From positions 55,225-119,224 of the forward strand of contig DOZJ01000002.1 of assembly GCA_003518055.1 (NCBI GenBank): a stretch of 64,000 nucleotides of DNA, written 5' to 3'. A program made the position numbers and the translations under genes. Source of the stretch: Candidatus Falkowbacteria bacterium (GTDB lineage: Bacteria; Patescibacteriota; Patescibacteriia; UBA11705). Position 1 is the first letter of the stretch, and every line of letters starts with the position of its first letter. Under the pieces are notes generated by a model, which was not told the DNA's origin, made no database searches, and saw only the letters and a program-made list of their open reading frames with translations. Of this stretch, positions 5,665 to 53,077 are shown one piece after another.

Positions 5665-5693
5665 TTGACAGGATGAAAGTTATGTGATAAAAT
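5665..5693 (+). promoter_or_regulatory. Sigma70-type promoter TTGACA-17-TGaTAAAAT (extended -10)
   Basis: ttgaca at 5665-5670, 17-nt spacer, TG at 5685-5686, taaaat at 5688-5693. Followed by SD 'aaaggag' 6 nt before the ATG at 5754. Confidence 0.5.
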
Positions 5694-5753
5694 ATTCCGT
5701 TATGTCCTTTATAATTTTCACCAAGCCGCTCACCAACAGGAAAGGAGCACGGC

Positions 5754-7757
5754 ATGGTATGGTTGATCCTGGCCGTTCTGTTCATCATTTTGGCTGCCTG
5801 CGGTAAGCCGATTTCCAAGCTGTTTTATCGTGAAAACTATCGAGAGGATGTGATGATTAGCGGACGGCGCAAGGTATTTCTTGGCGTCACAATCGCTTCA
5901 AGCTTTATCGCTCTCTTTCTCATCATGGCTACCAGTTATGTGTTTATCGATCAGGATAAGGTTGGTCATCTCAAGCGTATTTACGGCGCCAATATGCCCG
6001 CCGGCCGAGTCATCGCCGTTGATGGCGAAAAGGGCCCCCAGGCTGAGATCCTGCCTCCCGGTTTTCACTTCCGACTGTTCATCAATGTTCTCTATGAAGT
6101 GGAGGAGAAGGATATCGTCTCCGTTTCCAATGATCATTACCGCATTCTCACCGCCTTTGACGGTCGAACGCTGCCTGAAGGTCAGTATCTGGCTGATGAA
6201 TGGCCTGATGGTATGACTGAAAGTTTCCTCAATGCTGAATATTTTATGAGTCCTGTGGCGGAGGGTGGCGAACCACGTGGTCAGAAGGGTCCTCAGCTGT
6301 CGGTTCTAAAGCCTGGCCAGTATCGTCTCAATCGGTATCTGTTTGATGTTAGTGACGAAGTTCAGGCAACCGAGATCGAAGCTGGATCAGTCGGTGTGAT
6401 CAAGAGCAATGTTGGTACGGTTTATACGGACAAGGCGATCGTGCCGAAGTCCATCATCGAGTCCTATCTCGAGGCTTCTCGTCTGGAAATTTCGCTTCGT
6501 CGGACTGCTCTTGAGCAGGAACTCAAGACGCTTGAATCTCTACCTCCGGTAATCGATACCGTAGCGACTCTCGCTACTCCAGAAGCCGCTCCCGAATCCG
6601 GTGATCAGGCTTCTGATGTTGTGCCGGAGGTAGGTGTCACCGCCATTGCTGCCGTCGCTCCGTCTGCTCCGATTTTCCGGACTCAGGAAGTCATTCAGAA
6701 GGATCTGGATAGTCTACGAGAGCTGACTGAAGATGAGGCCTATTCCCGGGCTCTGACCAATCTGTCAAATCCGCTGGTTCCAAAAGGAAACATCGGTGTC
6801 TGGCAGGAGGTTTTGCTTCCCGGCCGCTATTATCTGAATAAGCTGGCATACCATGTAACTATGGTTGATACTCGAGTCCAGACTTGGACTTATGAAGGCG
6901 GGTATACCAGGCGGTATTTTGATCTGACTGTGAATCCTGACGGATCAATCACTCAGAAGGAACGGGAAGATGACGTTCTTCAGCCAGATGGTGCTGCCGA
7001 TTCGGCCATCGTTCATAAGGTTGAGGGCTGGGACGTCTGGCTCGACAGCCGCATTCTGGTTCAGGTCACTCCGGATAATGCACCTTTCGTAGTCGCTTCA
7101 GTTGGAAATCTGGAAGAAGTCGAGAATCGGATCATCACCCCGATGTATCGATCTGTTTCCAGAAACATCCTCGGCAATCGTAAGAATCGCGTACTTGACG
7201 TGATTTATGATCGTCAGACTCAGGAGGCACAGGTTGAGGCGGGTATCAAGCCTGAAGGTTTGAAGTCAGGGCTCATCATCCGAGATGTTCGCTTCGGTGA
7301 TCCATATGTGCCGCCCGAGCTCCTGATCCCTGGCAAGCGTCAGCAGTTGGCTATGCAGCTTCAGACCACGTTCGATCAGGAGAAGGTCGCCCAGGAGACC
7401 CGAATCCAAGCTGAGAAAAAGAAGGCTGAGGCCGAACAGCAGGCCATTCTCATGAAGGCCGAGATCGAAAAGCAGGCGGCCGAGCGCCAGAAGGAACGCG
7501 ATCGTTTGCTCGGTGAAGGTGAACAGCTTCGTCTCGAGGCCGTGGCCAAGGGGCAGAAGGCCCAGGAGGATGTTCTCGGTCCGAAGCTGACATTCGAGCT
7601 GTCCGTAATTCGCGAGATGCTCGCTGCCGCCAAGGAGCATCCCGAGTTGGTCAAGGTTCCCCACATCTTGGTTACCGGTGAGGGTGGCGGTCTATCAGGC
7701 GCGGCCGCTATTCTTGGTGAAAGCACCCTTACTCGGGCCCTCACGCCGAGCAAGTAA
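5754..7757 (+). CDS. SPFH/band-7 flotillin-like protein with lipoprotein-type signal (LAAC lipobox)
   Basis: C-terminal EA-rich coiled coil 'QAEKKKAEAEQQAILMKAEIEKQAAERQKE' typical of flotillin/YqiK, preceded by an SPFH-like region. N-terminal signal with a Cys. GC-richer than flanks, with codons such as CTG/GCC/GGC. Confidence 0.5.
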   Translation: MVWLILAVLFIILAACGKPISKLFYRENYREDVMISGRRKVFLGVTIASSFIALFLIMATSYVFIDQDKVGHLKRIYGANMPAGRVIAVDGEKGPQAEILPPGFHFRLFINVLYEVEEKDIVSVSNDHYRILTAFDGRTLPEGQYLADEWPDGMTESFLNAEYFMSPVAEGGEPRGQKGPQLSVLKPGQYRLNRYLFDVSDEVQATEIEAGSVGVIKSNVGTVYTDKAIVPKSIIESYLEASRLEISLRRTALEQELKTLESLPPVIDTVATLATPEAAPESGDQASDVVPEVGVTAIAAVAPSAPIFRTQEVIQKDLDSLRELTEDEAYSRALTNLSNPLVPKGNIGVWQEVLLPGRYYLNKLAYHVTMVDTRVQTWTYEGGYTRRYFDLTVNPDGSITQKEREDDVLQPDGAADSAIVHKVEGWDVWLDSRILVQVTPDNAPFVVASVGNLEEVENRIITPMYRSVSRNILGNRKNRVLDVIYDRQTQEAQVEAGIKPEGLKSGLIIRDVRFGDPYVPPELLIPGKRQQLAMQLQTTFDQEKVAQETRIQAEKKKAEAEQQAILMKAEIEKQAAERQKERDRLLGEGEQLRLEAVAKGQKAQEDVLGPKLTFELSVIREMLAAAKEHPELVKVPHILVTGEGGGLSGAAAILGESTLTRALTPSK

Positions 7758-7769
7758 ATTTAATTCAAA

Positions 7770-7794
7770 CACAGCAACTACTGTGTTTTTTTGT
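7770..7794 (+). terminator. Rho-independent terminator (acacag-caacta-ctgtgt + T7)
   Basis: Perfect 6-bp stem followed by tttttttg, 13 nt after the stop. Confidence 0.6.
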
Positions 7795-8102
7795 TATAAA
7801 AAATCCCATTTGTTCAGTTGCTCAAAATTTGGTAAACTAGGGGACGCGGGTGACATGAGGCGAGTGCCGCACACTTACCTCGATGTTACTGTCACCAAAT
7901 CCTTTTACCCTCACTATTCCCTTATTACACATTACTTCTCACTTATACTGTTTCCTCTTTACCACCCTCATCACCGTAATTTATTTATTTACCATCTCCC
8001 AATTCGTCCAAAATTTTTGTAGAAAGACTTTATCTAAACGACCCTTCATCTTGAAATTGTTTTTGTAAAAGCCAAACCTCCCAATTTCTTTCCAGAATAA
8101 TA

Positions 8103-8144
8103 TCTAATCTCGAATCTCCAATCTCTTAATCTCTTAATCTCTTC
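8103..8144. repeat. Tandem 7-8 bp repeat (t)aatctc(t), about 5 units, directly upstream of dnaE, ending ...tctccccctATG
   Basis: Direct reading. The same unit recurs at 57619-57668. Confidence 0.8.
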
Positions 8145-8156
8145 TTTTCTCCCCCT

Positions 8157-12933: not shown

Positions 12934-13049
12934 ATCTTATTTATATTCGATAAAAAAATGTGTCATCTTTCGAGAACATCAGGATGACACATTTTTTATC
13001 AAAAAAGAACCGTGTTTGGTTCTTGTTTATTCAATGATTGCCGACAGTT

Positions 13050-13379
13050 TTACATCTTGTTACGTTTCATGTAAACATAATAAAGTTTCATTTGAAACCA
13101 TTCCCCGCGATCGGCCAGATCATTTGGTTCTGGACATTTCCTGACATCAAAGCTGGTGACCATTGCGTTGCCCGGCAGAAGACCCAATCGATGAAGTTCA
13201 GATGCGAATACGGCTGCGGCTCGCTCATGAAGCCTATCGACAGATTCGTCAATGATCACGATTGGTGTTCCGGCTTCCCATGCCATTAGGAGTGTCTCCG
13301 TTTGCGGGTGAAGAATCTGAGGATCATTCCCATCAGAGTCAGTTCGGGAGACTTTCCCGAACCGGAGCAATAACTGCAC
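13050..13379 (-). CDS. Hypothetical ORF overlapping the zinc-ribbon gene in another frame; possible Toprim-like remnant or frameshift partner
   Basis: 109 aa. 'TPIVIIDESVDRL' loosely resembles a Toprim acidic motif. 94-nt out-of-frame overlap with 13286..13486. Confidence 0.25.
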   Translation of the reverse strand: MQLLLRFGKVSRTDSDGNDPQILHPQTETLLMAWEAGTPIVIIDESVDRLHERAAAVFASELHRLGLLPGNAMVTSFDVRKCPEPNDLADRGEWFQMKLYYVYMKRNKM

Positions 13380-13486
13380 TGTACCAATTGAGGTATGGCA
13401 CTGTGTCGATCTTCATCAAGGAATCGTGGAATATAGTATTCTCCTACTCCTTTGCAGACAGGACATTTCCTGCCAAAGATTGCCAT
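13286..13486 (-). CDS. Small zinc-ribbon protein (CxxC...CxxC)
   Basis: 66 aa 'KCPVCKG...CSYCSGSG'. Strong SD 'gggagg' 5 nt before the ATG. Consensus-type promoter upstream. Confidence 0.4.
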   Translation of the reverse strand: MAIFGRKCPVCKGVGEYYIPRFLDEDRHSAIPQLVQCSYCSGSGKSPELTLMGMILRFFTRKRRHS

Positions 13487-13518
13487 TTTTACCTCCCAAG
13501 TGATTTGGAATACTTAAT

Positions 13519-13547
13519 ACTATATCACAAGGATTTTTTATTGTCAA
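13519..13547 (-). promoter_or_regulatory. Promoter TTGACA-17-TGaTATAGT (minus strand)
   Basis: Reverse complement of 13519-13547 reads ttgaca-ataaaaaatccttgtga-tatagt. Confidence 0.4.
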
Positions 13548-13924
13548 TGAATCGGTTTGACGTTATGCGTTGTTTTATCTATAATTAACTTGCTCGCTGG
13601 TGATTGGGTCAGCTACCATCTGGCCGTCCTTTAATAGGACTTAAATCAGCCAAGAATTTAACTAAGCGGCGAGAACAATCAAAGAAATTAAGAGCTCCAA
13701 TTATTGTCATAATGTCTTGAACTTTTAAGGGATCAAGGAATCAATGGTGAACAATAGCGGAGAACGTGGGTGGAAACGCCGTCAATTCGATGGTCCCAAG
13801 GTTTATAGCCTTGTTTTTTATTTATATTATTACTAATGACGAATATACTACGAATATACTAAAACAAACTTAGGCGGTTGCTAAATTCGTAGATAAGTAG
13901 TCGATTTGTAATTGGTAACAAATT

Positions 13925-15099: not shown

Positions 15100-15730
15100 A
15101 GATAATCCCCACTTTAGTGGAAGGGTTTTATGAGATATCAGTTCTTTTCCAACACAACATATTTTGTTACCTACAAAACATGTAATAATGGATCGTATTA
15201 TTTTTCTGATGAGGAAAAAGATATTATCTTATCGAAATTGCTAGAAGCCCGGTCAAAATTCATACCCGGATTAAAAGCGTTTGCCATTCTTTCCAACCAT
15301 TATCATCTATTAATTGAAAATGTTGATAGTCGGGCCGCCCAAAAGTTTTTCCAACTATTAAATGGTGGTAGCTCGTTCATTATTAATAAGGATAAAAATA
15401 GTAAATTTAATTATTGGGGGATTCAGGACCGAATCAATTGGCCGGTTAAGACTGAGGGAAAGTTTTTTCAATTTTTAGCGTATGTGGTGGCCAATCCGTG
15501 GCGTCATGGTTTGGTGCGGGAAATAAGTGATTTAAAAGGTTATCGGTATTGTAATTATGACCAAGTTTGCGAAGACTATGGAGAGGCGTTTATACAAGAT
15601 TTAATTTTAAATCGTATTAAGAAAGATGATGAATGAGGTGTTTTCCCCACTAAGGTGGGGCATATTTAATTCATGTAATATAAAAAGAAATAAAATTCCT
15701 TATGTCCCACTTTAGTGGGAGGGTCTATAA
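15100..15730 (+). mobile_element. IS200/IS605-like or REP-RAYT element: Y1 transposase flanked by palindromic hairpins
   Basis: Near-identical hairpin copies 'cccactttagtgg(a/g)agggt' at 15106-15129 and 15704-15727, plus 'ccccactaaggtgggg' at 15645-15660, bracket the 168-aa HuH gene. Confidence 0.6.
15130..15636 (+). CDS. IS200/RAYT-like HuH tyrosine (Y1) transposase
   Basis: HuH motif 'NHYHLLIE'. 'NYWGIQDRI' and C-terminal 'NPWRHGLV' match the COG1943/RayT signature (NPvkaGLV). About 165 aa, typical size. Confidence 0.7.
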   Translation: MRYQFFSNTTYFVTYKTCNNGSYYFSDEEKDIILSKLLEARSKFIPGLKAFAILSNHYHLLIENVDSRAAQKFFQLLNGGSSFIINKDKNSKFNYWGIQDRINWPVKTEGKFFQFLAYVVANPWRHGLVREISDLKGYRYCNYDQVCEDYGEAFIQDLILNRIKKDDE

Positions 15731-17580: not shown

Positions 17581-17607
17581 AAAAAGGCGCTCATTGGGCG
17601 TCTTTTT
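17581..17607. terminator. Bidirectional hairpin terminator (aggcgc-loop-gcgucu flanked by A7 / T5) between thrS and a convergent gene
   Basis: A-run and T-run flank a 6-bp stem. The stop codon of the minus-strand gene (17591-17593) lies in the loop. Confidence 0.5.
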
Positions 17608-18380
17608 GGTCTTTGTTTCGAAACAGCTTTTGCTTTAGCCTCTGCCAAGTTGTCAGTGTCGGCGTTGGCTCAGGTTCAGTGGCGAGTACCGATTCGGCCG
17701 GCTTGATCTTGGCCATTTGCTCTGCGACTGTGATCAGGGTCGCGACGGCCGTTATCACCGTTGCTTTTGGCAGCTGACTGATAGCTGATAGCCGCTGGAT
17801 GCGGCAGCACACCGCCAGCCAGTTCCAGACAGGGAGGTAGTCATCATGGATCTTGTAGGCAAGATTTTGTTTAACTTGGCCCTGCTTCTCAGGGAATAGA
17901 ACCATGACATTCCGAGTATTAGCCGGAAAACTCTTCTGGAATACTCGTTTGTGATGAGGGAGTGCCTCCTTGCCGAAGAGCAGCCGGATTTCTAGGCTGG
18001 TTGTCCGGCGCCAGGCTTCTTCCTCCAATCTAACCACTTCAATCAGTCCAAGATCTCTGAGCTCGGCCTCAACCTTTTCGATTTCTATTGGTTCGGTCTT
18101 GACAATGCCGGCCAGCTTATCGGTCAGCGCGACCAGCAATTCCCGCTGGGTTTCAGTGCCAATGGATTCATTATGCAGTACTTTGAGCACAAATTGGGTC
18201 AGCGTCGTCTTTGGCATGTCAACCGGCTTTTGCCCGTGGTGGGGTTGTTTATCTGCTCTTGAAAGGCTGAATTCAAGCAGACTCGCTCCGTCAGAATCCG
18301 GGGCCTTCAATGGATAAAAAGTTCGTCGCTTGGTCAATGCTTGACGGGCTGACAAGAGGATAACATCCTGATTTTCCATG
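17591..18380 (-). CDS. Hypothetical protein, likely start MENQDV...
   Basis: SD 'aaaggag' 5 nt before the ATG at 18380. The ORF-track start at 18418 is a GTG inside the promoter. GC-richer than flanks. Confidence 0.5.
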
Positions 18381-18408
18381 ATTCGCTCCTTTGGTTGAGT
18401 TACATTGA

Positions 18409-18437
18409 AGCATATCACGAAAGCACAAGTTTGTCAA
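18409..18437 (-). promoter_or_regulatory. Promoter TTGACA-17-TGaTATGCT (minus strand)
   Basis: Reverse complement reads ttgaca-aacttgtgctttcgtga-tatgct. Confidence 0.35.
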
Positions 18438-21137: not shown

Positions 21138-21176
21138 CCCTAAACCCTAAAAGCTAAACGCTAACCCCTAAACCCT
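21138..21176. repeat. Telomere-like heptamer repeats CCCTAAA / (a/c)GCTAAA abutting the rfbC start (...ccctATG)
   Basis: Direct reading of 'ccctaaaccctaaaagctaaacgctaacccctaaaccct'. Confidence 0.8.
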
Positions 21177-21632
21177 ATGATCTCCGGAGTTCAAATCAAA
21201 CCCATCAAACGCTTCTGCGATGACCGCGGTTATTTTTGCGAAGTTATTAAGTTCGGTGAAGACACTTATCACGAAGTCAAACAAACCAGCTATACCGAGA
21301 CGCATCCCGGCGTGATCAAAGCTTTCCATTGGCACAAAAAACAATGGGATGTCTGGTTCGTGGTTCGGGGTATGGCTCAGGTTGTGCTTCATGATATGCG
21401 CGATGACTCGCCAACCAAAGGCGAAACTCAAGTCATTTGCGCCGGCGAAGATAACCCGGTCTTGATTGCCATCCCGCCATTTGTGGCCCATGGTTATCGG
21501 GTTCTGGGAAACGAGAAGGTTTGTTTGTTTTATCACACGAGCGAAGCCTATGATCCGGCCAACCCGGATGAAGAGCGGATCGAATTTGACGACCCGAAAA
21601 TCGGCTTTGACTGGACCACCAAAAATCGTTAG
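21177..21632 (+). CDS. rfbC: dTDP-4-dehydrorhamnose 3,5-epimerase (short cupin form)
   Basis: 'DDRGYFCEV' and 'AFHWHKKQ' correspond to RmlC 'DERGFF' and 'GLHFQ' motifs. Confidence 0.7.
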   Translation: MISGVQIKPIKRFCDDRGYFCEVIKFGEDTYHEVKQTSYTETHPGVIKAFHWHKKQWDVWFVVRGMAQVVLHDMRDDSPTKGETQVICAGEDNPVLIAIPPFVAHGYRVLGNEKVCLFYHTSEAYDPANPDEERIEFDDPKIGFDWTTKNR

Positions 21633-22749: not shown

Positions 22750-22809
22750 CGAGCGCCCACTGCCGTTTTATATATTACACATTACATATTACACAAATAA
22801 TTCACCAAT

Positions 22810-25263: not shown

Positions 25264-25292
25264 TTGACAAAGAGTAAAGTTTTTGATATTAT
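25264..25292 (+). promoter_or_regulatory. Promoter TTGACA-17-TGaTATTAT
   Basis: ttgaca at 25264-25269, 17-nt spacer ending tga, tattat at 25287-25292. SD 'ggagg' before the ATG at 25325. Confidence 0.5.
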
Positions 25293-25324
25293 ACATTGTC
25301 CATACACTACCGGAGGAAAAAGTC

Positions 25325-25645
25325 ATGAGGGGACCGGTCATCGCCGCTCAGATGAATCCATCCACCGTCAACTTTATGGCCAAAGTTGAAGCTGAGTGTG
25401 ATCGTTATTTGGAACTCGAATTTATACCGGGATCAACATTTTTTCGACGGGAAATGACCATTCCGGTCGCCAACTGTGATGTTGGGTATATCAGTTATCC
25501 CAAGATGTTCGCGGCCTTGATTGCTCTTTATACTACCGGCGATGAATCATGGGCCCAAGCCGTGTTTACCTTGTTTTCAACTGAAAATCAGACTTGTGTC
25601 ATCGAAGTATTTTTGTCAACCGAAACAGCCGAAACCAAGGAGTGA
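25325..25645 (+). CDS. Small hypothetical protein (paralogue A)
   Basis: Start at MRGPVIAAQ after the SD. Shares 'M.GP...VEAECD..L.L.F.P.S' with the next ORF. Confidence 0.45.
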   Translation: MRGPVIAAQMNPSTVNFMAKVEAECDRYLELEFIPGSTFFRREMTIPVANCDVGYISYPKMFAALIALYTTGDESWAQAVFTLFSTENQTCVIEVFLSTETAETKE

Positions 25646-25650
25646 AACCC

Positions 25651-26028
25651 ATGATCGGACCCCATCAGGCGGAGGCCGTGATTTTGTCAGAAGATGAAAC
25701 TCGTGTTTTTCGGGTTATTGAGGCGGCTTGTGATGCCAATCTTCCGCTTCATTTTCAACCGGATTCTCTGACAACGGAATTTTCTTTTGCTGTTAATCCG
25801 CCGGCGTTTAGAGAGATTTTGTACCGGGGGGTTGAAATTGCTTTAGCCAAATGTTACACGACCCCTACCGAAAAGAATCCCAAAGCCTGGGCAGCAGCTG
25901 AATTCAGGATTCGCAGAAAAGATAATGGGGAATTTATCATTTCCGTTAAACTGTCAGTCGCGCCGGCGCAGGAAGCTCCACGGCCGGATTTTCATGATCT
26001 CCGTAGTGATGCTTTCCATAACAAGTAA
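25651..26028 (+). CDS. Small hypothetical protein (paralogue B)
   Basis: Start MIGPHQAEAV after SD 'aaggag'. Paralogous to 25325..25645. Confidence 0.45.
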   Translation: MIGPHQAEAVILSEDETRVFRVIEAACDANLPLHFQPDSLTTEFSFAVNPPAFREILYRGVEIALAKCYTTPTEKNPKAWAAAEFRIRRKDNGEFIISVKLSVAPAQEAPRPDFHDLRSDAFHNK

Positions 26029-26099
26029 TTGAATCGTCTAACCGCGATTCTTTTTTATTTTTGATAATCACAATCTTGTCTTTCAATGGGTTAAACCAC

Positions 26100-26128
26100 T
26101 TGACAAAATTATCCATTATCGTTAAATT
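26100..26128 (+). promoter_or_regulatory. Promoter TTGACA-17-TAAATT
   Basis: ttgaca at 26100-26105. The -10 is only 4/6. Confidence 0.3.
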
Positions 26129-26157
26129 AAATTAAACGCCAAAGGAGAGGAGGCAAT

Positions 26158-26391
26158 ATGGTTGGCAGCTTCGACGAAGACACAATTCTGGATGAATTTG
26201 ATCAGGAGGAGCCGGTTTTCCTGGCTACCTGCCCCAAATGCTCATATACATTTTCTGTCGATGAATTGGCAGTCGAGTGCAAGTGTCCGCGCTGCCGCTT
26301 TGTTTTTGACCATGAAGCTTCTACTGAAGCCCCGGAGCCGGATGATGATGTGGCGGATACTGTCGATGACCTGAATTTTGATGATCAATGA
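26158..26391 (+). CDS. Small acidic zinc-ribbon protein (CPKC...CPRC)
   Basis: 77 aa. Two CxxC pairs. Very acidic N- and C-terminal tails. SD 'aaaggagaggagg'. Confidence 0.5.
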   Translation: MVGSFDEDTILDEFDQEEPVFLATCPKCSYTFSVDELAVECKCPRCRFVFDHEASTEAPEPDDDVADTVDDLNFDDQ

Positions 26392-26490
26392 TCATCTCTT
26401 TTTATTTTGCGGATTTGACGAATTATAAACTCTGAGATACGGTGAAATCACGGTGAAGTTTTCCCATCACCACCATGGAAAGGCGAACCA

Positions 26491-27230: not shown

Positions 27231-27401
27231 ATCCAGCAAATCAAACCGTTTTATTTTCGATCCCCGCGAGAAATCTATCCCTCCAACAAATTCCTATTTA
27301 TTTCAATATGTTTCCCTATTCCAAATTTACTTATCTCGCATTCTTGCTCATCTCGCTTATCCAATTGACAATTATCCTCACTTTGCTACACTTAAATTAC
27401 T

Positions 27402-29120
27402 ATGAAAATACTTATTATCGGTGCCAAAGGCATGCTTGGTCAAGAGTTAGCTAAGGTTTTTAATGATGAAGATCTTCATCAGTGGGATCGCGAAGAGATT
27501 GATATTACCGATCGAAACGCGGTCTTCACCAAGGTCAAAGCTTTAGCGCCTGACATCATCATCAATGCCGCCGCCTACAACGCGGTGGACCAAGCCGAAG
27601 AGGAAACAGAGTTGGCTCACCTCGTCAACGCTGTCGGCCCCAAAAATCTAGCAGAGGTGGCTAGGGATCTGCACACTAAATTTGTTCACTACAGCAGTGA
27701 TTATGTTTTTGATGGTACCAAAACCGACGGATACACAGAAACCGATACCCCAAACCCGATCAGCGAATATGGCCGATCAAAGCTGGCGGGGGAGCGTTTC
27801 GTTCAAACTGCCGGCGGCCAATATTACATTATTCGCTTGTCTCGGCTATTTGGCCGGCCCGCCTTATCCGATGGCGCTAAAAAAAGCTTTGTCGACGTTA
27901 TGCGCGACCTAGGTGAAACCAAAGATGAGCTTCAGGTGGTGAATGAAGAAGTCAGCTGTCCGACATATGCTCCTGACCTTGCGTTGCAAACCAAACGGTT
28001 GCTGTCGCTCCAATTACCAGCCGGTATTTATCATTCGGCCAATGCGGGCGCCTGCACTTGGTATGAGTTCGCGGCTGAAATTTTCAAAACTTTAAATAAA
28101 ACCCTTCACTTGATCCCTGTAGCCGGATCCACTTTTCCTCGGCCGGCCAAACGCCCGGCGTATTCAGAGTTAAAGACAACAAAAATGCCGGCGATGCGGC
28201 CTTGGTCGGAGGCGCTACGTGAATATTTGAATCGCGATAATCGTCCGGTTAAAACCGATCTGACTTCCAAATCAAATTCAGCAGCCAATCTCAATCAAAT
28301 GCCACTCAATCAAAATGTTATTCCTCCCGTCGTGCCACAATCTGTTGGCTCAAGTCGAGGGATGAAAGGGATTGTTCTAGCCGGAGGCAAGGGCACTCGT
28401 CTGTATCCATTGACTAAAATCACCAGCAAACAGCTACTGCCTGTTTTCAACAAAGCCATGGTGATGTACCCGGTGGAAACTTTGATTAGGGCTGGAATAA
28501 AAGATATTTTAATCATTGTCGCGCCTGATCACGCCGGCGATTACTTGCGCCTGCTCGGTTCCGGTCGAGAATTAGGGGTCAAATTTACCTACGAAATTCA
28601 AGATGAACCCAAAGGCTTGCCCGAAGCGTTCATTATCGGGGAGAATTTTATCGGCGACGACGATGTGACCATGATTTTGGGCGACAATATTTTCTTTGGG
28701 CATGATTTTTCCGACGACATCCAGTCTTTTGTCAAAGGCGGCCGAATTTTTGCCGTTGAAGTCCCAGATCCGGAGCGCTTTGGCGTTGTCGAATTTGATT
28801 CCACCATGAAAGTGTTGTCGATTGAAGAAAAACCGCAACAGCCAAAGAGTCATTACGCTATTCCCGGTGTTTATATTTACGACCATCGCGTGATCAATAT
28901 TGCCAAAGGTATCCGGCCAACTTGGCGGACTGAAACCGATATTGTCGAGGTCCACAAAGCCTATCTTGGATTAAATGAACTTGATGTCCGCATGGTTCGT
29001 GGCAGTTGGTATGATGCCGGCACCTTCGAGTCTCTGCTTCAGGCTTCAAATGAAGCGGCCGCCGAAGCTTACAAAAAAAAGCTGGGCATGAATCCGGATA
29101 TTTATACCGCCAAAAAATAA
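27402..29120 (+). CDS. rfbD-rfbA: Bifunctional fusion: dTDP-4-dehydrorhamnose reductase (RmlD, N-terminal) + glucose-1-phosphate thymidylyltransferase (RmlA, C-terminal)
   Basis: N-terminal 'MKILIIGAKGMLGQEL' Rossmann and 'YSSDYVFDG' of RmlD. From about residue 320, 'MKGIVLAGGKGTRLYPLT' of RmlA. Single uninterrupted 572-aa frame with a Pro/Ser/Asn-rich linker. Confidence 0.8.
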   Translation: MKILIIGAKGMLGQELAKVFNDEDLHQWDREEIDITDRNAVFTKVKALAPDIIINAAAYNAVDQAEEETELAHLVNAVGPKNLAEVARDLHTKFVHYSSDYVFDGTKTDGYTETDTPNPISEYGRSKLAGERFVQTAGGQYYIIRLSRLFGRPALSDGAKKSFVDVMRDLGETKDELQVVNEEVSCPTYAPDLALQTKRLLSLQLPAGIYHSANAGACTWYEFAAEIFKTLNKTLHLIPVAGSTFPRPAKRPAYSELKTTKMPAMRPWSEALREYLNRDNRPVKTDLTSKSNSAANLNQMPLNQNVIPPVVPQSVGSSRGMKGIVLAGGKGTRLYPLTKITSKQLLPVFNKAMVMYPVETLIRAGIKDILIIVAPDHAGDYLRLLGSGRELGVKFTYEIQDEPKGLPEAFIIGENFIGDDDVTMILGDNIFFGHDFSDDIQSFVKGGRIFAVEVPDPERFGVVEFDSTMKVLSIEEKPQQPKSHYAIPGVYIYDHRVINIAKGIRPTWRTETDIVEVHKAYLGLNELDVRMVRGSWYDAGTFESLLQASNEAAAEAYKKKLGMNPDIYTAKK

Positions 29121-36554: not shown

Positions 36555-36555
36555 T

Positions 36556-37519: not shown

Positions 37520-37548
37520 TTGACGTTATGGAGGAAATATGATATAAT
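37520..37548 (+). promoter_or_regulatory. Consensus promoter TTGACG-17-TGaTATAAT
   Basis: ttgacg at 37520-37525. 17-nt spacer ending tga. tataat at 37543-37548. Confidence 0.6.
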
Positions 37549-37608
37549 ACTCTGATGTAAGCTCTTTTTCACGTTTGCCTCACAGGGGAAACCCAAGGAG
37601 AGAAGCGC

Positions 37609-38031
37609 ATGAAGATCTATAAGGGAGACCGCATCACGTTCAACCATACCACCAGGATGAGAGGCCGGATCAAGCTGATCGTGAGCTACACCAACGGAAT
37701 GGGGCCGTTGATCGGCGCCGACGAGGTCAAGATGCTGGCCGACTGGCTGGCGGCTGAGATCCGCAGTCGGGGGATCGTCCTCGACCAGTGTCGGCACATC
37801 ATGCTTCACCTGGCCCACACCGAGCAGCATCCCGGATACAACAGCCGCGAAGGTCAGCCGATCGTCGGCTGCTTCGCCACCGTCCAGATGTATATGGGAC
37901 GCAAGCTGGTCGTGAGCCACGCCACCACCTACCACGGCTTCTTCCAGGCCGCACACGGTATGCTCCGAGGAACCGTGCTGCCGTACATCGCGCGCATGGC
38001 GTCCAAGGAGACTGTCGCGGCCGTGGCCTAA
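37609..38031 (+). CDS. Hypothetical protein on a GC-rich single-gene islet
   Basis: 140 aa. SD 'aaggag' 8 nt upstream. GC-rich codons (CTG/GCC/GGC/CGC) contrast sharply with flanks. Antisense ORFs 37447..38043 and 37788..38336 are shadows. Confidence 0.6.
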   Translation: MKIYKGDRITFNHTTRMRGRIKLIVSYTNGMGPLIGADEVKMLADWLAAEIRSRGIVLDQCRHIMLHLAHTEQHPGYNSREGQPIVGCFATVQMYMGRKLVVSHATTYHGFFQAAHGMLRGTVLPYIARMASKETVAAVA

Positions 38032-38156
38032 CCGTCTACCCACCTCATCTCAGCCCGATTCAGGGCAAATTCCAAGCAAAACCAAACCACGCAATATCAT
38101 TTGCACCCTGGCATCTCAATGTCAGGTTTTTTGATTATTTATTTTTGTGGATTATA

Positions 38157-38709: not shown

Positions 38710-39063
38710 AAGAAGTTTGATTATGATTTATTCTTACTCGTCTATTATAGCAAAAAACAATCAAACAATCCAATAATTAAAAAACCACGTGGTGACGTGA
38801 TTTATTGTTCCTTTAACAGTTGTTTAGTTTCTTCCAAGGTTTTTCTAAACGCCTTGAACAAGAACCATTTCCCGGTGAAAAAGGCCTTCCATTTGAGCCG
38901 CCGCAGGCGGCTGATTTCAGCTTCCAGATATTGTTTATATTCGTGAGCCGTCCAGAGTCCTTCGGCTTTCCTTTCCGTTTCCATTGATCATCTCTTTCCG
39001 GCTGCTGCCAGATTTTTCTTTTGTAAATGGGTGAGGTTTTACCCTGATATTAATTGTTAATTA

Positions 39064-39147: not shown

Positions 39148-39432
39148 TCAATGGGTTTGACTTTCAACCAGTGTTTCTCTAATCATTTGCCTTAAAGTAG
39201 TTTTTCCTTTTGTTGTTTTAAAATATTTTTCGCGGCGCAAAGCGTCTTTTTTTGAAAGGTAGGCTTCGTAAAACACCAAAATCATTGGTAGCCTTTTGGC
39301 GGTAGAGACATTTTCGCCTCTCTGATGTTCAAGAACCCTTCGGTCAACCTCAGCCGAATATCCGATATAAAATTTATTATCCTTCAAGCTTTGAAGAACA
39401 TAAACGTAATAGAATTTTTTCACCATACTCAA
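39148..39432 (-). CDS. GIY-YIG nuclease family protein
   Basis: 'YVYVLQS...KFYIGYS...R...H' GIY-YIG core. 94 aa. Confidence 0.8.
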   Translation of the reverse strand: MSMVKKFYYVYVLQSLKDNKFYIGYSAEVDRRVLEHQRGENVSTAKRLPMILVFYEAYLSKKDALRREKYFKTTKGKTTLRQMIRETLVESQTH

Positions 39433-39493
39433 ATTGCAGTGAACCTGAAAAATAAATGGCGAGCCATGAACTCGAGCGTACGCGAGTAGTTCA

Positions 39494-39567
39494 TGGCTCG
39501 AGGCCAGGGATTCGAACCCCGATAGCTGGGACCAAAACCCAGAGTCCTACCATTAGACGAGCCTCGA
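39494..39567 (-). tRNA. tRNA-Gln (anticodon UUG)
   Basis: Hand-folded cloverleaf, 74 nt. Acceptor UCGAGGC/GCCUCGA with U1-A72 and G73 (GlnRS identity elements). D-loop AAUGGUA. Anticodon loop UUUUGGU. T-arm CGGGG-UUCGAAU-CCCUG. CCA encoded. Confidence 0.8.
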
Positions 39568-39883
39568 ATAAGTTTTCAGGTCAAACATATCCGAATCAAT
39601 GCTATCATGGCTTATTTCGTTTGTCAATCGCGGTTTTGTTTGTCGTGTATAACGGATGAGATTAAATCGGACCATAAAATTTTGTGCTGGTCGTGGATCA
39701 GTTTTATGCCGACACTGAATTTGGTTTACCCGCCAATGTTTTTACAACCAGAAAATTATTATCAAGATTTCGTATTCAATATTATAGCAGTTTTTTTTTA
39801 TTCTCCCCAAATAATATTTCCCCCGACCAGCTGGAACGATCGTATTTTTGGAGTTTAGCTATGGTTGAGTTATAATAATCAAT

Positions 39884-42425: not shown

Positions 42426-42461
42426 ATGGTAATAAAAAAGCTCACTGGATTTCAGTGAGTT

Positions 42462-43004
42462 TTATCGTTGGCACAATTGTTCCATTTTTTTCCAGAGCAT
42501 CATCAGCTTATCAAATCCAAATTCCTGCTGCACCCGCCGTTCTAATTCGCCCTGTTCCCAATACCCGAGTTCCACTAGGGCGCAGTTAAACCGGTTTTGC
42601 GGCGGCGTGACCGTGGTTTCAGCTTCGCGGCAGGGAATCGTATCGGCCACAGCCGCGATCAATTCATCAAGTGAACCGCAATATGGACAGCCGGCGCAGA
42701 GCCAGTCATTGAGCATCGCCTGATACATCCGCCGTTGATGATTTTCATACCAAAGATTGAATGAATTCGGAACCGCGTCATCAACGGAGAGTCCAAATCG
42801 GCGGCAGCAATCATCAATAAACTGCCGGCGGAAACCGTCGACTTGATCAATCACCTCCATTTGCTTTACCAGCATATCATCACTGGCGTCATCGAGCCCA
42901 GCTTGCGCCTTTGCCAGATAGACTCTCAGTCCCTCAATCATCTCAAAGAATTCTTTCTCAGTCTGTGGATCGGGAAACAGGTGTAGTGCCATGAATCCCC
43001 CCAT
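42462..43004 (-). CDS. Hypothetical protein (CxxC-containing)
   Basis: About 176-180 aa. G-rich SD. Consensus promoter upstream. GC-richer. Confidence 0.5.
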   Translation of the reverse strand: MGGFMALHLFPDPQTEKEFFEMIEGLRVYLAKAQAGLDDASDDMLVKQMEVIDQVDGFRRQFIDDCCRRFGLSVDDAVPNSFNLWYENHQRRMYQAMLNDWLCAGCPYCGSLDELIAAVADTIPCREAETTVTPPQNRFNCALVELGYWEQGELERRVQQEFGFDKLMMLWKKMEQLCQR

Positions 43005-43052
43005 TGACGGTGGTTTGTTCCGATCGGTGGTAACTGAAATTACCAGTTTTTC

Positions 43053-43081
43053 ATTTTAACATATAATGTCTACGCTGTCAA
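43053..43081 (-). promoter_or_regulatory. Consensus promoter TTGACA-17-TGtTAAAAT (minus strand)
   Basis: Reverse complement reads ttgaca-gcgtagacattatatgt-taaaat. Confidence 0.45.
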
Positions 43082-43147: not shown

Positions 43148-43176
43148 TTGACAAATATTTTGATTAATGTTAGAAT
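43148..43176 (+). promoter_or_regulatory. Consensus promoter TTGACA-17-TGtTAGAAT
   Basis: ttgaca at 43148-43153. tagaat at 43171-43176. Confidence 0.5.
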
Positions 43177-43218
43177 CATAGCTAAATCAATCAGTCCCAC
43201 TCACCAAAGGAGCCGGTC

Positions 43219-43632
43219 ATGTCCGCTGATACTCTAGTTGGAGCTATTCTTCTTGGCCTCTTGGTTTGGTTGATAATTTATAGAGCTCGCCGGTCCCGCC
43301 GTCTGCGCGTTGATCATCTCAATCACTACACAAGGATACTTGAAGCGATTCATGACAAGGGTCACGCTGATGCCGCTGCCCGCAAGGAACGAAAATCGCA
43401 TTATGATATCAATGACTCGGAACTAAAAGGGGTAAGGCAGGAGTTGGTTGATGCTTTGAATCATAGTTATCTGAGCGGCTTTGATGATTTCAATAAGGGA
43501 AAGCCCAGTTTTTATTCTCTTTACGAGAAGCAGAATGAATTGCTCCAGCAAGAATTGGATGCCCTCAAAGCCCGGCTGGATGAGCTCCGCCATCCCAAGC
43601 CGCCGCCCAAGCAGCTCGAACTCAAATTCTAG
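43219..43632 (+). CDS. Small membrane-anchored coiled-coil protein
   Basis: N-terminal TM. SD 'aaaggag'. Leu-heptad C-terminal region. Confidence 0.5.
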   Translation: MSADTLVGAILLGLLVWLIIYRARRSRRLRVDHLNHYTRILEAIHDKGHADAAARKERKSHYDINDSELKGVRQELVDALNHSYLSGFDDFNKGKPSFYSLYEKQNELLQQELDALKARLDELRHPKPPPKQLELKF

Positions 43633-43655
43633 ACTCACATGTTGAGTCTTTTTTA
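43631..43655 (+). terminator. Rho-independent terminator (agactca-catgt-tgagtct + T6) overlapping the stop codon
   Basis: 7-bp stem and T-run. Confidence 0.65.
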
Positions 43656-43804: not shown

Positions 43805-43830
43805 CAAAAAAACCAACCTTATGTTGGTTG
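43805..43830 (-). terminator. Terminator hairpin for the minus-strand gene (aaccaac-auaag-guugguu + U7); the stop codon sits in the loop
   Basis: Reverse-complement reading. Confidence 0.5.
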
Positions 43831-45045
43831 CCCCGAATGTGTTATCGGGTAATTGACTGCGATTTTGGCTGTTTGCAGCGCTTCAATCAATTTGATGATA
43901 TTGGGGTTATCCCAATCAACAAAGAGATCAGCCGGGAAAAGGAGTTTGAGCAGCGGCAGGCTTTGCTGCAGCCGATATAGATGATGGTTTTCCGGTCCAA
44001 ACGATAGTTTCCGATTGAAGTAATGATCGAATATAAATAGTTGGACTTCCAACACTTCACCTTGAACATATACTAGAAACTGCATCTCGGGCGGTGACAC
44101 GGTGGATGAATATTCGTTGCGCCGCTTTCCTCCATGTCCATTGATTTTAACGTTTGAAATTACGGCGCCGTTGCCAAAAATTCCATGAGGTTCGGTCATC
44201 CGTTCATAGGCGGCGTTCAAATCATCTCTAGAGAAAAAGACCATCGTGATGCCGCACGCGTCATTATTGATCGGCAGCTCGGCTTTGCTCTGAACTAGGG
44301 TTTTGCGGAAATTATCTTCTTCTTTTTTAATGCGGCTGTCATACAAAACCTTGATTAGGCGGTTTTCGGTATTTATAAATCGATACCACAGCGCTAGGGT
44401 CAAACAATTTTGAGTTTCATCGCACGCGCCCAGCCCCGCAAACCGATTGAGGTTGGCCGGGTCATATCTGACCGTAATGTTTTCTCTGTAGGGTTTTTCC
44501 ACCTGCTCGGCCACAAACAGATTTTTTTCGAGCCAAAGAGTGAGACCGCTCAGCTGTCGTGAATAGTCTTTGTGGTGAATGCGCATCATGAGAAATCTGA
44601 TCCCAAGATGCCAGTAAACCAGAGCCACGAAGGATCTCATCCGTCGGTAGCGTTCATCTCCGGGCGGCCGCCAGATAATCGTCAAAATTTCGGCCGGATC
44701 AATCGTTGGGTTGATGATTCCGTCTGATGTGAACGGGAACCGAATGGCATCGGGGACAAATTCGCGAATCAAGGCTTGTTTGAAATCCTTGACCGCCGCG
44801 ATTGCCTGCCTGAAATTTTCATACAAGTATTTTTTCTCAATTTTTTCTCCGGTTGTCAGGTGCAGCCAATCAGCGATGGCTCTTCTGGCTTGGTCCGCGC
44901 TTTTTTTCTCCACTTTCTGGTATAATGAATACAGGGACCTCAGATGTGTCCACGCGATCGGATTTTCAATCCTCAGCTTGGTTTCATCAGTGAGGAACAT
45001 TTGCGTCAAGTCAGTGGGCTTGAGCAGGGGCGCTACATCTTTCAT
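43819..45045 (-). CDS. Hypothetical 408-aa protein, isolated on the minus strand; C-terminal half weakly nucleotidyltransferase (RelA/SpoT- or Pol-beta-)like
   Basis: Preferred start MKDVAPLL after SD 'aaaggagg'. 'DACGITMVFFSRDD' and 'EVQLFIFDHY' are only loosely reminiscent of the Syn2/Syn4 motifs. Confidence 0.5.
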   Translation of the reverse strand: MKDVAPLLKPTDLTQMFLTDETKLRIENPIAWTHLRSLYSLYQKVEKKSADQARRAIADWLHLTTGEKIEKKYLYENFRQAIAAVKDFKQALIREFVPDAIRFPFTSDGIINPTIDPAEILTIIWRPPGDERYRRMRSFVALVYWHLGIRFLMMRIHHKDYSRQLSGLTLWLEKNLFVAEQVEKPYRENITVRYDPANLNRFAGLGACDETQNCLTLALWYRFINTENRLIKVLYDSRIKKEEDNFRKTLVQSKAELPINNDACGITMVFFSRDDLNAAYERMTEPHGIFGNGAVISNVKINGHGGKRRNEYSSTVSPPEMQFLVYVQGEVLEVQLFIFDHYFNRKLSFGPENHHLYRLQQSLPLLKLLFPADLFVDWDNPNIIKLIEALQTAKIAVNYPITHSGQPT

Positions 45046-45089
45046 CCAGCCTCCTTTGTCCGAGCATTTTTGTGAGTTTGCCAATAATT

Positions 45090-45118
45090 ATTATATTGAA
45101 GTTATATTATTCTGTAAA
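45090..45118 (-). promoter_or_regulatory. Promoter TTTACA-17-TATAAT (minus strand)
   Basis: Reverse complement reads tttaca-gaataatataacttcaa-tataat. Confidence 0.45.
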
Positions 45119-47937: not shown

Positions 47938-47963
47938 TGTAACTTTTATTTAATAATTTAATA

Positions 47964-48661: not shown

Positions 48662-48690
48662 AAAAAAAGCCGCGATGTTTTCGCGGTTTT
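48662..48690. terminator. Bidirectional terminator (A7-ccgcga-tgttt-tcgcgg-T4)
   Basis: Between convergent genes. Confidence 0.55.
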
Positions 48691-48693
48691 ATC

Positions 48694-49143
48694 TTACTCG
48701 TTCCAGTTTTCAGGCTGCATCTCAAAGTCGGTCGGTTTCCAGACGACGACCGTGCGGTCAAAGTCTAGTCCGGCCTGTTTCAAATACCATGCAAAGGCTT
48801 CCACCGCCAGCCCACGGTTAATCGCGTCAGAGTTAACCACGATGTCCGGCAGGAACGGCCGATCATCGTCGGTGTGGATGACATAGTCAAGGTTCGAGAA
48901 GGTGTTACCAGCCTCAAAGTCCGCTGCCACGCGGGCGGCCGCATCAAGTCCTGCCGCTTCAGCGTATTTGCGCCACCGGGCAGCATCCTCCTCAAAGCTG
49001 ATCCTTCCCAGAATGGTGAAACGATACAGTCGCTGTTCACCTCGAACCCATACAGTCACATCAAAATCATCCCATGGTACGGTAGATGTCTGATGATTCG
49101 CAAGCGGTCCGAGCGTCGTTACCGTCAATCGCAGCTTCTTCAT
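48694..49143 (-). CDS. Hypothetical protein (GC-rich islet, gene 2 of 2)
   Basis: 149 aa. SD 'gggagg'. Confidence 0.55.
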   Translation of the reverse strand: MKKLRLTVTTLGPLANHQTSTVPWDDFDVTVWVRGEQRLYRFTILGRISFEEDAARWRKYAEAAGLDAAARVAADFEAGNTFSNLDYVIHTDDDRPFLPDIVVNSDAINRGLAVEAFAWYLKQAGLDFDRTVVVWKPTDFEMQPENWNE

Positions 49144-49231
49144 TCTCGCCTCCCGTGGTTGTTGGGATTTAGAGAAACCCCGACAATCGCAGGCTGGCGC
49201 AGCCGCTTCTCTTCATGTTTCTCCTTCCGGG

Positions 49232-49525
49232 TTAGTCGTTCTTCGTCAAATACGCCACCAAGGACTGAGCCTCTTCGGGCGTCCAGGCAAACCGCTGGGT
49301 CAGGCAAGAAATCACCTGCTCGTTAGTCCGGCCGCCAGCCAGAAGCTTGCGCGCCACCTTGCACGGCATAATGCTTTCATCGGACAGAGCGTGAGAACCA
49401 CCGGCATGTTCAGTCCAGCGATAAGGCCGGCGCAGATTTTCCCGCGCCGCCCTGAACCAACGCTTCGGACAATGATTATTATCCCGGCCAATAGTTTTGA
49501 CGAAACGGCGATGCGTTCGGCTCAT
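49232..49525 (-). CDS. Hypothetical basic protein, possible HTH at the C-terminus (GC-rich islet, gene 1 of 2)
   Basis: 97 aa. SD 'ggagg'. Arg-rich N-terminus. Confidence 0.5.
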   Translation of the reverse strand: MSRTHRRFVKTIGRDNNHCPKRWFRAARENLRRPYRWTEHAGGSHALSDESIMPCKVARKLLAGGRTNEQVISCLTQRFAWTPEEAQSLVAYLTKND

Positions 49526-49631
49526 GATTTCCTCCGGCCGCGGTTAGGTTTCTATTCGAAATCCCCGCAGCTGAAGCAGTTGATCATCCCTTTCTTTCAT
49601 CGTATCCCTCCATTTGGGAGTATCTTTGCTA

Positions 49632-49660
49632 ATTTTAGCAAAATTGTAATGGTTTGTCAA
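49632..49660 (-). promoter_or_regulatory. Consensus promoter TTGACA-17-TGcTAAAAT (minus strand)
   Basis: Reverse complement reads ttgaca-aaccattacaattttgc-taaaat. Confidence 0.5.
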
Positions 49661-50839: not shown

Positions 50840-50936
50840 TTAAACTTCGATATACTTAAAAAATACCGGTCAGCGGTATTTTTTAATTTGGCTGAAATGC
50901 TTTATAATTATCTTTATATAATGATTAATATTATTT

Positions 50937-52082: not shown

Positions 52083-52095
52083 AAACAAGCTAGTT

Positions 52096-52124
52096 TTGAC
52101 AATATTTATTAATTGTGATATAAT
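52096..52124 (+). promoter_or_regulatory. Consensus promoter TTGACA-17-TGaTATAAT
   Basis: ttgaca at 52096-52101. 17-nt spacer ending tga. tataat at 52119-52124. Confidence 0.6.
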
Positions 52125-52168
52125 TTTGTGTTGTTTTCCACCACGGAGAAGGTGAAAGGGGATACCGA

Positions 52169-53077
52169 ATGAGCAGTGCAGCCTTCGCCACTTTTCCAAT
52201 GTATGGCGCTTTTCAGTCTGCTGAAGAACACATGGGTATCAAGAACGCGCGCTGGCAGCCCGTGGCAGCGGAGTCTTTGCAGCAGCGGTTTGTTGAATTT
52301 TTGGAGCGCAATCGTGGTAATGTTGGAACCGTGAATCGTTTCATGAAGTGTATCGCGACCAGAGACGTGGCTGAGTTTAATCGCTTCATGGTGGAAAATC
52401 ATCATCCGGAAATGCAGCTTCAAAGCCTCGGTGATATGCAGTTCGCCGCCGGTGCGGTCATGGATGTGCTCGTCAAGTGGCTTCAGATCGGCGATCCCGT
52501 TGACATTTGCCAGTTCGGCCATCAGGGACCGACTTATCCTGGTGTTCATCTGAAGAAGGGCGTGACCGTTTACTCCACGGCTGAAGATCACGGCCGATGC
52601 GTGGTCAAGATCATCACGCAGGATCCGGATGTCGAAGTGCTTTTGATCAAGGCCAAACCAGGAGCCGATGATGACATGGACGGCCTGACTCTCACTGACC
52701 GCGGCCGGTTCATTATTGGCATGGTTGATCGGTTGCCCCGTTCCCGGACTTTTTCCGGTGTGGAATTTCCGATGGTGATGTTGGACACCGAACCGGATGT
52801 GAACTGGCTTTGCGGCTTGTCCACGGTTGACGACGGAGGGGTGCCGGCCTGGGTGGCTCAGGCGCGGATGCACGTCCGCCTGCGGGTCAACCTCGAAGGG
52901 GCGCGCGCTGAAGCTGCTTTTGAAATGGTTGTCCTTCGTGGCGGCGGCGATTTCAATCCGCCATATGTCATTGATGGTCCGTTTTACTTCATCATGCGCT
53001 ATCGCGGCGTGGATGAGCCGCTTCTGGTCGCCTACTGCGATGTGGATTCGTGGAAGGATCCGGGCAGTCTCGCTTAG
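52169..53077 (+). CDS. Hypothetical cytoplasmic protein (GC-rich)
   Basis: 302 aa. Extended SD 'ggagaaggtgaaagggg'. The antisense ORF 52109..53095 is His-rich low-complexity and is judged a shadow. Confidence 0.55.
   Translation: MSSAAFATFPMYGAFQSAEEHMGIKNARWQPVAAESLQQRFVEFLERNRGNVGTVNRFMKCIATRDVAEFNRFMVENHHPEMQLQSLGDMQFAAGAVMDVLVKWLQIGDPVDICQFGHQGPTYPGVHLKKGVTVYSTAEDHGRCVVKIITQDPDVEVLLIKAKPGADDDMDGLTLTDRGRFIIGMVDRLPRSRTFSGVEFPMVMLDTEPDVNWLCGLSTVDDGGVPAWVAQARMHVRLRVNLEGARAEAAFEMVVLRGGGDFNPPYVIDGPFYFIMRYRGVDEPLLVAYCDVDSWKDPGSLA

Follow-up and report, generated by a model that had tools for sequence, protein, structure and literature searches.

Why should a single bacterial genome express some of its genes from complete promoters and strong ribosome-binding sites, and its housekeeping genes, lying between them, from neither? 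The question is raised by a 64 kb stretch of DNA (the window) from a groundwater metagenome-assembled genome (MAG) of a Candidatus Falkowbacteria bacterium, locus tags DF272_01205 to 01450. Falkowbacteria are members of the Candidate Phyla Radiation (CPR, or Patescibacteria). A preliminary description of the window had listed eleven start codons preceded by a near-consensus promoter and a strong Shine-Dalgarno (SD) site. We propose, with a probability of roughly 0.6, that two expression architectures exist here side by side, SD-led stand-alone units carrying the flexible genome and core genes being SD-less. The units are a real accessory-gene architecture, and they are a variation on themes that are already known.

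A search of the window for TTGACA-N14-TGNTANNNT (the TGnTAnnnT type) gave nine exact matches, starting at 5665+, 13547−, 18437−, 25264+, 39627−, 43081−, 43148+, 49660− and 52096+, where 0.01 was expected from 100 dinucleotide shuffles; a chance origin of the pattern is thereby excluded. Eight of the nine precede genes that had been listed, and the other precedes tRNA-Gln. Four more promoters are one-off variants: 37520+ (TTGACG), 45118− (TTTACA), 26100+ (TTGACA-17-TAAATT) and 53146+. The TG is absent from three of these four (26100, 45118 and 53146), so that the cassette first described, with a TGn throughout, held for its 17-nucleotide (nt) spacer, found in every exact and one-off promoter, and failed for the TGn at 26100 and 45118. 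In total there are 12 units with 16 open reading frames (ORFs) and one 18-amino-acid (aa) upstream ORF, and all 12 are promoter-ORF-terminator modules. A hairpin and T-run terminator follows each of them, which is more than the "most" originally claimed. The units, and the tRNA gene that served as comparator, are as follows.

Unit 1, 5665..7795, plus strand: promoter TTGACA-17-TGATAAAAT (5665-5693), 60-nt leader, SD aaaggag (5741-5747); coding sequence 5754-7757, an SPFH/Band 7 membrane protein of 667 aa; terminator 7767-7788.
Unit 2, 13005..13547, minus strand: promoter TTGACA-17-TGATATAGT (13547-13519), SD gggagg; a 66-aa ORF with two CxxCxGxG motifs (13486-13286) and an overlapping 78-aa ORF (13286-13050), joined at TAATG; terminator 13024-13005.
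Unit 3, 17581..18437, minus strand: promoter TTGACA-17-TGATATGCT (18437-18409), SD aaaggag; a 262-aa ORFan (18379-17591); terminator 17581-17607, a bidirectional hairpin common to thrS.
Unit 4, 25264..26056, plus strand: promoter TTGACA-17-TGATATTAT (25264-25292), SD ccggagga; two paralogues in tandem, one of 106 aa (25325-25645) and one of 125 aa (25651-26028, with an SD of its own, caaggag); terminator 26031-26050.
Unit 5, 26100..26402, plus strand: promoter TTGACA-17-TAAATT without TG (26100-26128), SD aaaggagaggagg; coding sequence 26158-26391, a 77-aa acidic zinc-ribbon-like protein; terminator 26380-26396.
Unit 6, 37520..38132, plus strand: promoter TTGACG-17-TGATATAAT (37520-37548), 60-nt leader, SD caaggagag; coding sequence 37609-38031, a 140-aa ORFan (hyp140), GC 61.7%, GC at third codon positions (GC3) 0.85; terminator 38107-38126.
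Unit 7, 42441..43081, minus strand: promoter TTGACA-17-TGTTAAAAT (43081-43053); a 176-aa Cys-rich ORFan ending at 42462, with its probable start at ATG 42992 after GGGGGA, not at 43004; terminator 42459-42441.
Unit 8, 43148..43655, plus strand, divergent from unit 7: promoter TTGACA-17-TGTTAGAAT (43148-43176), SD aaaggag; coding sequence 43219-43632, 137 aa with a transmembrane segment at the N-terminus; terminator 43631-43649.
Unit 9, 43811..45118, minus strand: promoter TTTACA-17-TATAAT without TG (45118-45090), SD aaaggagg; coding sequence 45045-43819, a 408-aa protein with a candidate RelA/SpoT-like synthetase fold; terminator 43829-43811.
Unit 10, 48670..49660, minus strand: promoter TTGACA-17-TGCTAAAAT (49660-49632); an upstream ORF of 18 aa, MKERDDQLLQLRGFRIET (49600-49544), with its own SD, between the promoter and the 97-aa gene; ORFs of 97 aa (49525-49232, SD ccggagga) and 149 aa (49143-48694, SD cgggagg); terminator 48686-48670.
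Unit 11, 52096..53108, plus strand: perfect promoter TTGACA-17-TGATATAAT (52096-52124), SD-like aaagggga; coding sequence 52169-53077, a 302-aa near-ORFan (hyp302), GC 55.7%; terminator 53083-53102.
Unit 12, 53146..54114, plus strand: promoter TTGACA-17-TATCAT (53146-53174), SD aggaaggag; predicted lipoproteins of 149 aa (53210-53659) and 136 aa (53678-54088, TTG start, SD caaggagg); terminator 54087-54108.
tRNA-Gln(UUG), 39567-39494 (span 39494..39627), minus strand: comparator, not a member of the class; promoter TTGACA-17-TGATAGCAT (39627-39599).

Curation altered parts of the original list of starts. The start given as 18380 is the ATG at 18379. The start given as 43004 has no SD; the GGGGGA before ATG 42992, which is NCBI's 176-aa call, pairs at −9.3 kcal/mol. 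The start at 49525 stands, with its promoter 106 nt upstream and the SD-led 18-aa ORF, which may be a leader peptide, lying between. Five members had been missed (25651-26028, 13286-13050, 48694-49143, 53210-53659 and 53678-54088). Several public start calls in the window are probably wrong as well. The statement that none of the products has an assignable function fails for the SPFH/Band 7 protein at 5754 and, as a candidate assignment, for the RelA/SpoT-like fold at 43819-45045.

Pfam scans of the window upheld the housekeeping identities of dnaE, dtd, thrS, murA, rplI, pyrG, msrB and msrA and likewise found rml sugar genes, glycosyltransferases and DUF4012, Gmad2/Germane and PEGA proteins. 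The last three are frequent in CPR genomes. SD strength, calculated as the energy of the duplex between the last 22 leader nt and the canonical anti-SD ACCUCCUUU, was bimodal. Class genes gave −8 to −12 kcal/mol, as the description of their cassettes would have it; nearly all other genes gave −3 or weaker, including the eight housekeeping genes just named, for which the absence of an SD had correctly been reported. Class SD sites lie 5-9 nt before the start codon in leaders of 30-60 nt with a T content of 8%. Core leaders from −20 to −1 contain 9% G versus 24% genome-wide, and position −1 is T in 76% of the SD-less genes (n=46) versus 13% of those that are SD-led. Predicted folding energy from −30 to +30 averaged −5.6 kcal/mol for core genes versus −12.0 in mid-gene (p=2e-7); for the class it averaged −11.8, not different from the interiors of the class genes themselves. 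These values fit two modes of initiation, in which core genes present an open start without SD and class genes a start of ordinary structure anchored by an SD; being structured like gene interiors, class start regions would need anchoring by SD/anti-SD pairing.

The G-depleted and repeat leaders attributed to core genes were also found. Several leaders directly 5′ of SD-less genes are formed by G-free tandem repeats of 7-8 nt, such as the five copies of TAATCTCT before dnaE, and these may act as unstructured landing pads for ribosomes.

1534-1605: GCTAAAA repeats, before GT2.
8098-8143: TAATCTCT repeats, before dnaE.
21138-21177: CCCTAAA repeats, before the rmlC-like gene.
22768-22795: ATTACAC repeats, before HIT.
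38755-38781: AAACAATC repeats, before RDD.
57619-57669: CTCAATCT repeats, before hyp149.

A TAATCTCT leader was also seen 5′ of a ferredoxin gene outside the window (locus L095, 2568).

Non-class genes commonly have a −10 or extended −10 box (TGnTATAAT) and no −35 box. In msrB, HIT, CDP-OH transferase, DUF4012 and rmlD-rmlA the −10 box is only 7-9 nt before the start, which suggests that their mRNAs are leaderless. Among first-in-unit genes the −35 box and the SD were tightly tied to each other (12/12 versus 3/32, Fisher p=2e-8). In the model that we favour, the promoters of core genes would consist of a −10 or extended −10 box and no −35 box, and translation would proceed without SD pairing, from leaderless mRNAs or short, G-poor, unstructured leaders, depending on an open start region in place of the SD. 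At least 12 units would instead use the full consensus sigma-70 promoter (TTGACA, 17 nt, TGnTAtAAT) of the tRNA-Gln type, a T-poor leader of 30-60 nt, a strong SD that precedes the start by 5-9 nt and an intrinsic terminator at the stop codon, making each an insulated promoter-SD-ORF-terminator module with signals that the host recognises. With a complete promoter, ribosome-binding site and terminator of its own, a unit should be independent of its location and orientation. How strongly the genes are transcribed and translated, whether the anti-SD is used and why selection would favour the split are inferred here.

The class makes up about a quarter of the genes in the window, and its members are mostly lineage-specific. 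For the ten class proteins tested, clusters at 90% identity held 1-3 sequences, and all named members came from this MAG. A search of 5.8 billion proteins returned a single homologue of hyp302, at 36% identity, and none of hyp140, whose GC of 61.7% stands in a genome of 45% GC. Comparison of the class proteins with Pfam, PHROGs, PADLOC and NCBIfam gave nothing beyond SPFH for 5754 and weak zinc-ribbon matches; scans of viral contigs with two class members found no relatives; and a structure model of hyp302 was unusable (predicted local distance difference test score, pLDDT, 33). A single paralogous family was rejected as the basis of the class, only hyp106 and hyp125 being related. The minus strand carries 6 of 15 class genes versus 3 of 47 others (p=0.004), the core being nearly all co-oriented.

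For comparison with relatives we used fetched loci, among them L028, L087, L090, L091 and L092. A pyrG-anchored scan of metagenomes yielded 80 loci with a top identity of 66%; a YibE_F-based scan of genome contigs found distant relatives only (52% and 38% identity) and no sister species for comparison. No class gene occurred in the scanned loci L004-L089 except the hyp302 homologue in L006. The gap between rmlB and rmlD, which in the window holds units 4 and 5 and a NUDIX gene, is 15 nt in L028; that between YibE_F and DUF6938, which holds units 11 and 12, is 98 nt in L091. The check for presence or absence that had been suggested, made in these relatives, thus showed units 4, 5, 11 and 12 to be missing at closed syntenic gaps. 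The slot of unit 10 (dCache-YibE_F) is occupied in L091 by two unrelated ORFans on the opposite strand, with TTGACA-17 promoters and strong SD sites. These results support an accessory set, one of the two readings first suggested, the genes being ORFan or patchy, on either strand, distinct in amino-acid and codon usage, and with their gaps closed in syntenic relatives. The sequence architecture, its statistics, this phyletic pattern and the conservation of SD sites across orthologues are direct observations.

Could promoter and SD simply mark the organism's most highly expressed genes, whatever their origin? The class promoters are as near to consensus as that of tRNA-Gln, and their SD sites combine strength with good spacing. 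However, rplI, pyrG, thrS and other genes expected to be expressed highly or steadily lack both signals, and codon choice in the class diverges from that in rplI and the core instead of exaggerating it, the pyrimidine-ending two-fold families being mostly unchanged. Expression level also leaves the ORFan status, random strand and synteny gaps unexplained. We regard a plain high-expression class as very improbable.

Composition bears on a second possibility, that the genes are recent imports whose promoters and SD sites are relics of SD-using donors, unadapted to the host. Mean GC was 50.7% in the class versus 45.7% in the rest (p=0.0013), and the six genes first singled out as GC-rich ranged from 50.5 to 61.7%; the enrichment was real, if below the "mid-to-high 50s" judged by eye. 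The excess sits in the first and second codon positions (GC1 and GC2), with more Arg and Cys and less Ile, Lys and Asn. GC3 did not differ overall (p=0.16), hyp140 being the exception. (A 198-aa ORF antisense to hyp140 is a by-product of its GC3 skew.) Lys was encoded by AAG at a frequency of 0.61 in the class versus 0.25 in the rest (p=8e-20) and Leu by TTA at 0.02 versus 0.15 (family p=9e-18); synonymous usage of Gln and Gly was also sharply distinct, and leave-one-out codon z-scores differed between class and rest (p=5e-4). This atypical codon usage favours donor relics, as do the GC3 of the homologue-free hyp140 and the lone hyp302 homologue, whose organism is rich in SD sites and shares similar codon preferences for Lys, Leu and Gly.

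The comparison of homologues for origin covered the SPFH gene, hyp302, hyp140 and the 408-aa gene. Along its whole length the SPFH protein shares 55-58% identity with proteins of Magasanikbacteria and of non-CPR contigs of 70-72% GC, a close relationship to genes of high-GC genomes that again speaks for import. In Magasanikbacteria the gene is GC-rich (0.55 in a genome of 0.43) and SD-led, and close to it is an islet of GC 0.65 that has a perfect promoter. These results point to horizontal transfer of the SPFH gene. Horizontal acquisition, one of the two origins first suggested, therefore holds for some members, on the evidence of the SPFH homologues in 70% GC non-CPR genomes and of hyp140. 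As a general rule, donor-derived signals did not hold. Class promoter regions are as AT-rich as host intergenic DNA, and no such promoter lies upstream of the high-GC SPFH homologues. The native tRNA-Gln uses the same promoter type, which is thus the organism's own strong sigma-70 type. Choice among Glu, Asp, Asn, Tyr and His codons is host-like, as it is for two-fold families beyond Lys and Gln.

The 408-aa gene also argues against relics. The family of its protein is small, with 17 representatives at E below 1e-30, and was found only in contigs of similar gene content. Orthologues in L090, L091 and L092 are 42-48% identical and keep a correctly spaced SD and a promoter that has a −35 box; the L091 copy is syntenic and not GC-enriched. 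Intergenic sequence would not outlast such protein divergence unselected, so the SD and promoter of this gene must be functional in, and maintained by selection within, the lineage. We consider import of donor signals distinctly unlikely as an explanation of the class, whose origins are mixed, some units having arrived by horizontal transfer and others being older residents. Selection has probably preserved SD pairing in this lineage, its core genes having dropped it, a point with a bearing on the evolution of translation initiation in reduced genomes.

A third possibility is a native regulon in a special mode of translation, in which most ribosomes would be blind to the SD and an SD-competent state or subpopulation would act under stress or on host contact. 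The clade is indeed SD-poor, yet SD sites are conserved on particular genes. By one method, the share of ORFs preceded by an SD does not exceed 9% in 53 related CPR loci, versus 45-69% in non-CPR loci from the same scan; the SD-bearing ORFs of the 53 loci are about 2.7 GC points richer (p=0.004) and also AAG-richer. Hints of stress or signalling come from the SPFH protein, the RelA/SpoT-like fold and the DnaJ-type CxxCxGxG protein. There is also a precedent in Bacteroidia, where the anti-SD is sequestered and the SD-led rpsU is served by ribosomes lacking bS21 (PMC7797042, PMC9976891, PMC13000453). In Parcubacteria, however, bS21 is reported to be often absent (PMC9297842), which removes the partner for sequestration of the Bacteroidia type. 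When the 12 promoter and leader regions were aligned, conservation was confined to the −35 box, the TG, the −10 box and the SD; no operator or other regulatory motif was shared beyond these, and the co-regulation originally offered as the alternative to import thus found no basis outside the common core promoter. The members are also heterogeneous, mostly unconserved between relatives and, one paralogue pair apart, unrelated. We judge such a regulon unlikely. By analogy with the bS21-less ribosomes of Flavobacteria, the units might form a separately translated tier, efficient only on an SD-competent ribosome state while most ribosomes worked on open, G-free leaders; accessory, stress or host-interaction genes would in that case have their expression gated by the very chemistry of translation initiation, but we regard this as a long shot. 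Each of the three alternatives (donor-signal import, a dedicated regulon, a plain high-expression class) is contradicted by some of the evidence.

Several observations weigh against our proposal of two architectures divided between core and flexible genes, or narrow it. The DNA covered, the window and 18 kb of flanks, is only about 82 kb of the genome, and gene starts were set by hand curation. A motif search found no 16S gene in the window or in any fetched locus, so the canonical anti-SD was assumed; the motif is reported in only 48% of Parcubacteria (PMC9297842). An automated scan of related loci gave no signal of a −35/SD association (Fisher p=1.0); we treated it as uninformative because it was noisy, with start codons picked automatically and pyrG itself often flagged. 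Around the units we found no convincing flanking direct repeats and, next to them, no integrase or transposase. Codon differences do not extend beyond the families of Lys, Gln, Leu, Gly and a few more amino acids, and L091 shows them for Leu, Asp and Asn alone; with differences so limited and GC3 unshifted, recent foreign origin cannot explain every member. The link between −35 box and SD is also imperfect. TTGACA occurs without SD at GT2_3 and at rmlD-rmlA; the latter, with its full promoter, shows that the −35 box is not restricted to SD-led genes. In the 18 kb of flanks a flavin-reductase/radical-SAM-SPASM operon of two genes is SD-led and GC-richer with a weak −35 box, and one glycosyltransferase has TTGACA without SD. 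The same flanks contain one ORFan with TTGACA-17-TGATATAGT and an SD, and no SD on core genes (PK, TIM, M16 and others). Thus the SD/core split holds in the flanks, and the −35 link is a tendency, not a rule.

How do the units compare with known systems? Phage morons, a concept of Hendrix and Juhala, are autonomous promoter-gene-terminator insertions in the genomes of lambdoid and other phages. They are discussed in PMC4378225 and PMC8065619. Like morons, the units are single genes or pairs with their own promoter and terminator, lying between conserved neighbours and deviant in composition. Unlike morons, they are chromosomal, in a CPR bacterium, with dnaE, thrS, rml genes, pyrG and msrA as neighbours and no prophage; they have no PHROG or viral-contig matches, and at least one member is vertically inherited. 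Genomic islets and the ORFan flexible genome consist of lineage-restricted genes of atypical composition that differ in presence or absence. The units share the restriction, the atypical composition and the variability between relatives, but they are GC-richer than the host, not AT-richer, are dispersed singly and not in islands, and have no integrases, tRNA-adjacent insertion sites or flanking repeats that we could find. Actinobacteria and Deinococcus have a dichotomy of leaderless and SD-led genes. The window likewise has −10-only promoters 7-9 nt before the start beside leadered SD genes; it differs in its many SD-less genes with 20-45-nt G-free, often tandem-repeat leaders, and in an SD class that coincides with a full −35 box and accessory status. 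The window also resembles Bacteroidia, in which nearly all genes are SD-less with A/U-rich unstructured leaders and a minority has a strong SD; in Flavobacterium johnsoniae one strong-SD gene, the autoregulatory rpsU, has been described (PMC7797042, PMC9976891, PMC13000453). In the window the SD is on about a quarter of the genes, accessory ORFans.

If these signals alone separate core from flexible genes, one genome would be enough to flag genes that are accessory or of recent gain, gene starts could be better predicted and candidates for host interaction prioritised. CPR bacteria have not been brought into culture, and the majority of the genes specific to their lineages have no annotation.

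Some further features of the window and its relatives deserve mention. At 27365-27410 (plus strand), the rmlD-rmlA fusion gene has TTGACA-16-TGCTACACT just 9 nt before its ATG, and its mRNA is probably leaderless, made from a full promoter. Back-to-back with the promoter of unit 2 is a TTGACG-17-TATAAT promoter, and beyond it come some 230 ORF-free nt and then a terminator (13797-13813), together a candidate small RNA (13557-13825, plus strand); it had no Rfam match and a fold z-score of just −1.9. In relatives with genomes of 0.42-0.43 GC we noted GC-rich islets at L087 15566-16816 (minus strand, 0.65) and L091 10173-12778 (0.53-0.65). In L087 the islet carries an SD as well as a perfect TTGACA-17-TGATATAAT promoter; its public gene calls are apparently on the wrong strand. 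A second, low-GC kind of atypical DNA is the AT-rich patch at 39148-39858 adjoining tRNA-Gln, with a GIY-YIG endonuclease-like ORF (39148-39432, GC 0.36) and an 83-aa ORF (39607-39858, GC 0.36). Finally, within 15107-15660 an AT-rich gene (GC 0.34) with a weak match to an IS200-like Y1 transposase (15130-15636) has CCCCACTAA(A/G)GTGGGG hairpins on both sides, and similar hairpins accompany a 63-nt repeat (2.8 copies) at 57437-57613; together they resemble a REP/RAYT arrangement (repetitive extragenic palindromes with a REP-associated tyrosine transposase).

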